From the sequence record LR597660: a stretch of DNA of 64,000 bases. One strand, written 5' to 3'. The notes beneath the pieces are model-generated. The model ran no database searches. It was not told the origin of the DNA and saw only the letters and a program-made list of their open reading frames with translations. How positions within the stretch are numbered: position 1 is the stretch's first letter; every line of letters begins with the position of its first letter. Shown piece by piece: positions 58,415 to 60,153 of this stretch. Position numbers and translations under genes: made by a program. The DNA comes from Escherichia phage T4_ev151.

Positions 58415-59344
58415 ATGTCAGGATATAATTCTCAGAATCCAAAGGAACTCAAAGATGTCATTCTAAGACGTTTAGGGGCTCCAATTATTAATGTTGAGTT
58501 AACACCCGATCAAATCTACGATTGCATCCAGCGTGCCCTAGAATTATACGGTGAATACCATTTTGATGGACTCAATAAAGGTTTTCATGTATTTTATGTA
58601 GGGGACGATGAAGAAAAATATAAGACTGGAGTATTTGATTTAAGAGGTTCTAACGTATTTGCAGTAACCCGCATTTTACGCACAAATATTGGGTCAATAA
58701 CATCTATGGATGGAAACGCTACATATCCGTGGTTTACTGACTTTCTTTTAGGAATGGCTGGTATTAATGGCGGAATGGGAACGTCTTGTAATAGATTTTA
58801 TGGACCAAATGCCTTTGGAGCTGATTTAGGGTATTTTACTCAACTTACCAGTTATATGGGAATGATGCAAGATATGCTCTCTCCTATTCCAGACTTTTGG
58901 TTTAATTCAGCAAATGAACAACTCAAAGTCATGGGAAACTTCCAAAAATATGATTTAATTATCGTAGAAAGCTGGACTAAATCATACATTGATACCAATA
59001 AAATGGTTGGAAATACAGTAGGATATGGAACAGTTGGTCCACAAGATAGTTGGTCATTATCTGAACGATATAATAATCCAGACCACAATTTAGTAGGTCG
59101 TGTTGTTGGTCAAGACCCGAATGTTAAGCAAGGTGCTTATAATAATCGTTGGGTGAAAGACTATGCAACAGCTTTAGCTAAAGAATTGAATGGTCAAATT
59201 TTAGCACGCCATCAAGGTATGATGCTTCCTGGCGGTGTTACGATTGATGGACAACGCTTAATAGAAGAAGCTCGATTAGAAAAGGAAGCGCTGCGCGAAG
59301 AATTATACTTGCTTGATCCTCCAGTGGGAGTGTTAGTTGGATGA
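58415..59344 (+). CDS. 13: Neck protein gp13
   Basis: 309 aa as T4 gp13. Confidence 0.95.
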
Positions 59345-60153
59345 ATTATACTAAAATTTACGACTCTCTTATAGAAAGATCTCTTAAAAGAGGTCTTAAT
59401 AAGAAAAAATTAGATTATTATACAGAATCACACCATATTGTCCCAAAATCCATGGGAGGAGATGATTCTAGAGAAAACAAGGTTTTACTGACAGCAAGAG
59501 AACACTATTTTGCACATGAGCTTCTTTTTAAAATACACCGAAATTCTGAAATGGCTTATGCTTTAATAAAATTCTCCAAGGGTACAAAAGAGCAGAGAAT
59601 TGTAAGTAAAGATTACGGATGGATTAAAGAGGAAACATCTAAAATTAGATCAGAAACCATTAAAAAGTTTTGGGCGAATCTATCACCAAATTTAAAACAG
59701 GAACGAATTAAAAAAGCCGGAAAAGGCATTAAAAAAACTAAATCTTTATGGACAGATGAAAAGAGAAAAGAAGTTAATGCAAATATTCGAAAAGCTTCAG
59801 TGAAATATTTGGAATCGTTATCAGAAAACGAAATGTTAGAATATAAAGAAAGATGTTCTAAACAGATGAAAGATTTTTGGTCTGAGCTTAAAAGTGACCC
59901 CCAAAAATACGAAAAGTATTTAAATAAACTATCTAAGGGTCTTGCAAAAGTCGAAAAGAGAAATTGCCCGCATTGCGGAATTATATGTGATGTAGGAAAT
60001 TATGGAAAATACCACGGCGATAAATGCAAAGTTATCACGGGTGTATCTCATAGCAGAGAAAAATTAAAATGCCCGCATTGCTCTAAAATCATGGATAAGT
60101 CTCACGCTAAAAGATACCATTTTGACAATTGCAAATTTAAGAAGGTCGAATAA
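59341..60153 (+). CDS. HNH homing endonuclease inserted between genes 13 and 14
   Basis: 270 aa; HNH motif [27 protein letters not shown]; two C-terminal CPHC...C zinc-finger repeats. Confidence 0.75.

Follow-up and report, generated by a model that had tools for sequence, protein, structure and literature searches.

A putative free-standing HNH homing endonuclease gene with two zinc fingers at the junction of neck genes 13 and 14 in T4-like phages

The endonuclease best suited for comparison with the gene described here is I-TevIII, an HNH endonuclease of 269 amino acids (aa) encoded by the nrdB group I intron of phage RB3. It was shown that its residues H26, H27, N39 and H48 are essential for cleavage, that two fingers of the form CX2CX12-13HX3C at C211/C214 and C242/C245 bind zinc and are needed for DNA binding, and that the protein, whose dimerisation region was placed at residues 194-241, cuts both strands, leaving 2-nucleotide (nt) 3' overhangs (PMC1865063). 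Free-standing endonuclease genes are known as well: the HNH genes of the T4 Mob family, of which mobA-D of T4 are without demonstrated activity and no activity is known for MobD, and the Seg genes, of which those for SegF and SegG are inserted between conserved genes, are present or absent in relatives and are expected to spread by cleavage of the empty genome and recombinational repair, a process termed 'intronless homing' (PMC2988022). Here we describe a locus in a stretch of 64,000 nt from Escherichia phage T4_ev151 (sequence record LR597660; the window, in the following, is this whole stretch), in which an open reading frame (ORF) for a putative HNH homing endonuclease lies between the neck genes 13 and 14. 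Judged by its sequence and distribution, this is probably (at roughly 80%) an active free-standing HNH homing endonuclease gene, built like I-TevIII and spreading among Tequatrovirus. New here are the exact boundaries of the mobile cassette, an obligatory recoded tail of gene 13, the I-TevIII-like architecture and the long association of the endonuclease family with this junction.

The cassette at the junction of genes 13 and 14

An earlier reading of the window from its letters alone (the sequence-only reading) had proposed that an HNH gene is wedged between two genes that are neighbours in T4, and in the T4 record only 1 nt indeed separates the end of gene 13 from the ATG of gene 14. In the window, the endonuclease ORF is placed between and not within the two genes, both neighbours are still complete ORFs, and the element is not intronic. 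At its start (GG-ATG-A) the TGA of gene 13 (59342-59344) overlaps the ATG of the endonuclease gene (59341-59343), and at its 3' end (...GTC GAA TAA T ATG GCT) the TAA at 60151-60153 is followed by one T and by the ATG of gene 14 at 60155. Both arrangements had been described in the sequence-only reading, which had also located the Shine-Dalgarno sequence of gene 14 inside the HNH coding sequence; it was found there as the motif AAGAAGG, which sits 9 nt 5' of the gene 14 ATG and substitutes for the T4 gene 14 site TAGGT, located inside the tail of T4 gene 13. The cassette keeps the 13-to-14 geometry of the empty phages at both its ends, and the translation signals of the flanking late genes are kept, as had been suggested, in the form of the ATGA coupling, the TAA-T-ATG and the new ribosome-binding site in the ORF tail.

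The alignment of the junction against T4-like genomes that had been recommended was run with 11 filled alleles (this window and 10 fetched ones) and 10 empty alleles. It identified a cassette of 827 base pairs (bp), which takes the place of the 18 bp TTTGGAATTTTGGTAGGT in the empty alleles and makes the filled allele 809 bp longer. Both ends are sharply defined and identical in 11/11 filled alleles, and the single-nucleotide polymorphisms (SNPs) outside are common to both classes. The empty alleles read ...CCT CCA TTT GGA ATT TTG GTA GGT TAA T ATG GCT..., the filled alleles ...CCT CCA GTG GGA GTG TTA GTT GGA TGA ATT ... GTC GAA TAA T ATG GCT.... The proposal of an insertion stands insofar as an ORF was added at this site; it does not stand as a pure insertion, since 827 bp replace 18 bp and gene 13 receives a new version of its six final codons.

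The recoded tail, with the 18-bp sequence GTGGGAGTGTTAGTTGGA, replaces TTT GGA ATT TTG GTA GGT TAA (FGILVG*), so that the gene 13 protein ends in PPVGVLVG in filled and in PPFGILVG in empty alleles; the recoding comprises seven base changes in 21 nt and two amino-acid changes (Phe to Val and Ile to Val). It is present in all 11 filled alleles and in none of the 10 empty ones. The ribosome-binding-site-like motif GGGAG arises from the Phe-to-Val and Ile-to-Val recoding at a place where T4 has TTGGAAT, and the ATG of the endonuclease gene is also made by recoding (GGT TAA to GGA TGA). No recoded-but-empty allele was found among the 656 records matching a synthetic junction query without the gene. 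The sole apparent match of this type, Escherichia phage BYEP02, was rejected, since it has a T4-type junction and a duplicated segment. In this record (L103, OR757454.1; length 154.7 kb) the start of gene 14 is duplicated ~80 bp apart at 1540-1700 and adjacent genes are annotated in fragments; the duplication looks like an assembly artefact. As a separate observation, 5 of the 11 filled alleles and none of the 10 empty ones have a G at 59323, the position that adjoins the cassette on its left and is the third in the second Pro codon; this G may be a one-base co-conversion remnant or part of the original cassette.

Distribution, divergence and protein architecture

A query of 1701 bp, i.e., the ORF and ~440 bp on either side, matched 502 records, nearly all of them Tequatrovirus, and a record was counted as filled when it covered at least 80% of the query; the counts refer to records, and some phages are present twice (GenBank and RefSeq). 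Filled junctions were found in 46 of the 502 records, including T6, vB_Eco_NR1, fPS-2, YUEEL01, CrRp10 and pSe_SNUABM_01, and at least six named species are represented among the filled phages. The remaining records, including T4, T2, RB3, RB51 and RB55, are empty and match as two pieces spanning 892 bp. Uniform presence of the ORF without any empty allele, which had been named beforehand as the outcome speaking for an ancestral gene, was not seen. The copies of the protein fall into 34 records with at least 99% identity and 12 with 95-99%, and no other record has more than 60%. The best 25-kb database matches to the window reach 95-97% identity, and none is identical. Neither the filled junction nor the recoded-but-empty one was matched when IMG/VR was scanned for exact patterns; a protein-based scan of IMG/VR found one copy at 99% (L008). 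Many GenBank records already label the ORF a homing endonuclease; in the papers searched, no endonuclease at the 13/14 junction had been named or characterised.

The cassette itself is far more uniform than its surroundings. Its mean pairwise identity among the 11 filled alleles is 99.0%, compared with 94.9% over 900 nt leftward into gene 13 and 96.5% over 800 nt rightward in the same phages. The divergence of the flanks between filled and empty alleles equals the divergence within each class. Moreover, no flank SNP is fixed between filled and empty alleles, the largest difference in allele frequency being 0.45 on the left, at the base immediately left of the cassette, and 0.63 on the right. 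Because of this contrast in identity and the unlinked flank SNPs, the cassette is several times younger than its surroundings and resides on many different backbones, a pattern predicted by horizontal spread via homing. This agrees with the recent spread within the genus proposed from the sequence alone, as the copies are nearly identical and the genes flanking them in these phages have diverged ~4-5x more. Scrambled flanks could also be obtained by frequent recombination after a single insertion. Among nine intact copies the synonymous diversity (pS) is 0.032 and the nonsynonymous diversity (pN) 0.0046; this ratio (pN/pS 0.14) shows that the endonuclease protein is under purifying selection.

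Relatives were sought among 5.8 billion proteins, which resulted in three metagenomic proteins of similar length with 50-56% identity in a multiple alignment (52-57% pairwise), the next matches having at most 40%. All three are encoded directly 5' of a gene 14 homologue, and in L007 and L108, the contigs of which extend upstream, the gene 13 tail lies directly before the endonuclease gene. L007 and the empty Shewanella phage Thanatos-1 form a second, independent filled/empty pair with flanks that are 99.2-99.6% identical. The junction of Thanatos-1 reads ...CCA CCA TTT GGT ATT TTA ATT GGC TAA GGAATATT ATG and that of L007 ...CCA CCT ATG GGA ATA ATT ATT GGA TGA ACT ... TTA GTG GGG TAA T ATG. 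In L007, too, the six final codons are altered, starting straight after the two Pro codons, with Phe replaced by Met and Leu by Ile; the endonuclease ATG overlaps the new TGA and the ORF ends one base before the gene 14 ATG, as in the Tequatrovirus cassette. The gene 13 tail of L006 reads CCA TTT GGG ATC CTC CTG GGG TGA, and that of L108 CCA TTT GGA ATT CTC ATT GGA TAA. In the multiple alignment of the junction relatives the HNH domain and the fingers are well conserved, the linker is not. Four diverged backbones have the family at this one junction, so that, judged by these sequences, the endonuclease family has long been associated with the 13/14 site in distant T4-like phages.

Related genes also occur at other sites. 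A relative of 224 aa (P0006, 40% identical) is encoded at 4001-4675 of L110, another T4-like contig, with a tail-cap gene on one side and a TnsA-like ORF followed by gp2 on the other; as it lies elsewhere in the genome, the family below ~50% identity is not tied to the 13/14 junction. Furthermore, another HNH gene, which is Mob-like and has only one CX2CX12HX3C finger, is located between genes 14 and 15 in L006 (1621-2217) and in the Winklervirus LC53, a Serratia phage (L105, 2017-2613; 61% identical to the L006 copy), so that the neck gene block hosts more than one finger-bearing HNH element.

The ORF of 270 aa and its HNH character, both put forward in the sequence-only reading, were borne out by the ORF list and by a Pfam HNH_4 match at residues 25-52 (25.6 bits versus a cut-off of 22, E 1.2e-5). 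PHROG 655 'homing endonuclease' matches with E 1.8e-52, and a profile of 67 homologues matches the HNH domains of McrA, a group II intron maturase and Cas8-HNH in the PDB. The two CPHC...C repeats that had been noticed are present as CPHC-x12-H-x3-C at residues 209-229 and 244-264. Residues H31, H32, N46, H55, H59, C244, C247, H260 and C264 are invariant in the 67 homologues. In an AlphaFold model calculated from these homologues (mean predicted local distance difference test score, pLDDT, of 92), the HNH core is predicted as strand-strand-helix (E29-32, E47-50 and H52-66) around H31/H32, N46 and H55, and each finger as a small unit of two strands and a helix on CX2C...H...C ligands. NUMOD3 was not matched in the linker of this protein at E <=0.1, though many homologues carry Pfam NUMOD3.

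Table 1. Features of the 13/14 junction in the window and its relatives in other T4-like backbones
Feature	Position	Strand	Description	Basis
Gene 13	58415..59344	+	neck protein gp13, 309 aa	ORF list; same position annotated gp13 in T4, T6 and NR1
Mobile cassette	59324..60150	+	827 bp	alignment of 11 filled and 10 empty alleles
Recoded gene 13 tail	59324..59344	+	GTG GGA GTG TTA GTT GGA TGA (VGVLVG*)	junction alignment
GGGAG	59326..59330	+	ribosome-binding-site-like motif, 10 nt 5' of the endonuclease ATG	sequence reading
Putative HNH homing endonuclease ORF	59341..60153	+	270 aa and stop, ATG start	ORF list, Pfam, PHROG 655
Predicted HNH catalytic core	59413..59520	+	residues 25-60; H31, H32, N46, H55, H59	Pfam HNH_4
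Helical linker	59608..59946	+	residues ~90-202, five long helices; least conserved among junction relatives	model
Zinc finger 1	59965..60027	+	CPHC-x12-H-x3-C, residues 209-229	sequence
Zinc finger 2	60070..60132	+	CPHC-x12-H-x3-C, residues 244-264	sequence
AAGAAGG	60139..60145	+	ribosome-binding site for gene 14, within the endonuclease coding tail	sequence
Gene 14	60155..60925	+	neck protein gp14, 256 aa	Pfam T4_neck-protein, E 1.4e-138
L007, protein P0002			ATGA overlap; 1-nt gap before gene 14	backbone ~99% identical to Shewanella phage Thanatos-1 (empty)
L006, protein P0004			9-nt spacer TATAAGTAT before the ATG	backbone ~75-80% identical to Serratia/Erwinia T4-like phages
L108, protein P0003			9-nt spacer TTTAAGTAT before the ATG	wastewater contig

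The window carries further putative homing endonuclease genes at a distance from this locus. An ORF of 198 aa at 45015-45611 (+), between the gene 5 region and gene 6, combines an N-terminus of the GIY-YIG type (SegE-like) with a NUMOD3 motif and a DNA-binding domain of the I-TevI type and is another putative free-standing Seg-like homing endonuclease gene. A third is an ORF of 221 aa at 34733-35398 (-), in which Pfam recognises a GIY-YIG catalytic domain (E 7e-6). Two ORFs of 288 and 178 aa (43639-44505 and 44498-45034, +), lying in the interval from gene 5 to the Seg-like ORF, gave no Pfam match.

Expression, candidate target and rival explanations

From the features of the locus we infer how the gene would be expressed, which site the enzyme would recognise, whether it would leave a double-strand break or a nick, and how its carrier would be protected. 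An exact T4 late-promoter box TATAAATA is absent from the + strand of 52015-64000, the nearby boxes all having one mismatch, and sigma-70-like sites are no more frequent than expected by chance. As no promoter was found, the simplest reading is that the endonuclease gene belongs to the late 13-14 message. Hairpins hiding the ribosome-binding site occur in I-TevI-III, mobE and segB. An RNA hairpin masking the ribosome-binding site of the endonuclease gene was considered here and rejected, as the region 59295-59375 folds with -10.6 kcal/mol (z = +0.89 versus shuffled sequences); folding of the equivalent region of L007 (z = -0.23) gave no support for a hairpin either. Viable isolates include phages in which the ORF is truncated, which suggests that gene 14 is independent of ribosomes completing the endonuclease ORF.

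The candidate target emerges from the comparison of the empty alleles. The empty junctions of T4, the Winklervirus LC53 and the genus-unassigned Thanatos-1 share CCATTTGGWATTTT...GGYTAA at the nucleotide level, despite belonging to different phage groups, and the consensus of the empty alleles in the three lineages is CC-CCA-TTT-GGW-ATT-TTR-RTW-GGY-TAA. Each of the four filled lineages departs from it in its own manner over the final four to six codons. Two of these lineages changed two of the three bases of the Phe codon and thereby acquired a new amino acid, where one synonymous change was possible, suggesting selection acting on the nucleotides. On this basis the enzyme probably has its recognition site where gene 13 ends and gene 14 begins, and the recoded tail is a candidate immunity determinant; insertion and recoding together would protect the carrier.

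A mechanism can be proposed in which the gene, having no promoter of its own, would be transcribed with the late 13-14 message and yield small amounts of protein through re-initiation at the ATGA overlap, aided by the GGGAG made by the cassette. Upon co-infection with a relative lacking the gene, the fingers would bind the conserved CC-CCA-TTT-GGW-ATT-TTR-GTA-GGT-TAA-T-ATG at the gene 13 end and gene 14 start, and the enzyme would cut or nick close to the bound site. Recombinational repair from the filled genome would then copy the 827-bp cassette into the broken genome. The filled allele would be protected by the splitting of the site through the insertion and by the recoded copy of the last six codons of gene 13, and expression of gene 14 would be retained via the new ribosome-binding site in the endonuclease tail. 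It is tentatively proposed, with chances slightly short of even, that the mobile unit extends beyond the endonuclease ORF, the cassette bringing its own last six codons for an essential structural gene, that this 21-nt piece keeps gp13 functional through conservative changes (Phe to Val, Ile to Val), makes the ribosome-binding site and start codon and destroys the target, leaving the carrier immune, and that the junction represents a long-lived homing site crossing genera. If this were true, the four recoded tails would map, by natural mutations, the sequence recognised by the two zinc fingers, and the same family would have followed the junction from Escherichia to Shewanella hosts with a different recoding in each lineage.

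Several points weigh against an active homing gene with its target at the junction. A literature search found no cleavage, binding or homing data for this protein, and fold searches with the whole model returned nothing significant except for the HNH core. Apart from the G at 59323 as the sole hint, the flanks carry no signal of co-conversion or hitchhiking: in 100-nt bins both groups show the same diversity, which amounts to 0.082 in filled and 0.065 in empty alleles for the first 100 nt on the left and to 0.039 and 0.038, respectively, for the first 100 nt on the right. Homing with exonucleolytic resection usually leaves a co-conversion signature, unless it was erased by later recombination. 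Moreover, frameshifted copies exist, in both cases in A-runs: F1 (L090) has lost one A at 59731 and CJY920 (L093) has gained one A near 59902; for FN and SHFML-26, which have the same 1700-bp span as F1, a frameshift is deduced from that span. These copies may reflect real decay or homopolymer sequencing errors. Concerning the target, the first tail codons (CCATTTGG) are unchanged in L108 and L006, and the recoded tail could serve solely to supply the ribosome-binding site and the ATG. Finally, known free-standing T4 endonucleases often cut away from their own gene (PMC2988022), so that the target may not be the junction.

The frameshifted copies, together with the lack of demonstrated activity of T4 mobA-D (PMC2988022), would fit a decaying relic that formerly homed, is now inactive and persists because its deletion is rare. 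This is unlikely, as the copy in the window is intact, the nine intact copies evolve with the low pN/pS given above, the HNH and zinc ligands are conserved, and the HNH and finger domains are kept across genera at 50-56% overall identity while the linker drifts; moreover, both frameshifts, lying in A-runs, could be sequencing errors. An even smaller probability is assigned to the explanation that the gene is ancestral at the site and was lost from most T4-like phages. The presence of the family at the same junction in four diverged backbones would agree with it, but empty T4, LC53 and Thanatos-1 share one tail whereas each filled lineage is recoded differently, so that precise loss would need to restore the canonical tail every time. 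Furthermore, in the same phages the divergence of the cassette (1.0%) is far lower than that of the flanks (3.5-5%), SNPs in the flanks show no linkage to the presence of the gene, and the filled and empty members of the Thanatos pair differ by <1% in their flanks.

A site-specific nickase like I-HmuI, moving via nick-induced recombination or fork collapse and not as a dimeric double-strand cutter, is a somewhat doubtful yet serious alternative. One-strand nicking was observed for most characterised phage HNH homing enzymes, and the N-terminal domain is closest to MobD (46% over 111 aa). MobA-E were described as making single-strand nicks (PMC13096335). On the other side, I-TevIII, which shares the two-finger region where dimerisation maps, makes its double-strand break as a dimer (PMC1865063). 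It is rather improbable that the gene is kept chiefly for the benefit of the phage, by exclusion of competitors in mixed infection or as a packaging aid. Its location in the neck/terminase block (genes 13-17) would be in line with such a role, and terminase-associated HNH proteins aid DNA packaging; the T4-type terminase, however, has its own nuclease. A terminase-associated HNH packaging factor was considered and discarded as a class for this gene, which is absent from ~90% of the matching Tequatrovirus records; as ~90% of the close relatives are viable without the gene, it is not needed for packaging. PMC11620839 and PMC13096335 document endonucleases that confer a competitive advantage in co-infection, but exclusion of competitors is compatible with homing and not an alternative to it.

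Comparison with described endonucleases

As a summary, the locus adds a cleanly delimited, apparently active member to the small set of HNH homing endonucleases with two zinc fingers, and the current understanding of homing endonucleases is unchanged by it. It illustrates how two essential late genes linked by translational coupling can take up a selfish gene between them with both couplings left intact. Laboratory phages naturally offer both states of the junction (filled in T6, empty in T2 and T4), the target is easy to guess, and the independent tail recodings in four lineages provide a ready set of candidate resistant and sensitive site variants for work on specificity. Moreover, the gene could account for localised marker exclusion around genes 13-14 in crosses of T6 with T2 or T4.

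The protein resembles I-TevIII in its length (270 versus 269 aa), in its arrangement of an N-terminal HNH domain and two C-terminal fingers and in its occurrence in the same phage genus. The fingers start at C209/C212 and C244/C247, compared with C211/C214 and C242/C245 in I-TevIII, and H31, H32, N46, H55 and H59 align with the H26, H27, N39 and H48 of I-TevIII. In BLASTP the similarity to I-TevIII is significant for residues 192-267 alone (33% over 78 aa, E 2e-7); the multiple alignment (24% overall) also brings the N-terminal domains into register, which the pairwise comparison does not. I-TevIII differs in that it is encoded by an intron inside nrdB, whereas the gene in the window stands on its own between genes 13 and 14. 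The two enzymes must have distinct target sites, and dimerisation and double-strand cleavage are on record for I-TevIII only.

The relationship to the T4 Mob family concerns the other end of the protein. Like MobD, it is the product of a free-standing HNH gene in T-even genomes, RB7 MobD being 46% identical over residues 1-111, and the Mob family shares the N-terminal block MNYxKIY...HHI.P...GG.D..N.V.LTAREH..AH. MobD is without the two C-terminal zinc fingers, as seen in the alignment, and its locus is nrdC.11/mobD.1. The full architecture recurs in a free-standing two-finger HNH gene between 45.2 and 46 (RB68_055 and RB32), with ~30% identity over residues 1-267. This gene lies at another locus, on the strand opposite to its neighbours, and is a distant paralogue and not the same element. 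With SegF and SegG, the element shares the insertion between conserved genes, the presence or absence in relatives and the expected mode of spread. SegF and SegG, however, are GIY-YIG enzymes that cut inside the neighbouring gene at a distance and leave co-conversion tracts, whereas the element in the window encodes an HNH protein and is marked by sharp cassette boundaries with no flank linkage detected.

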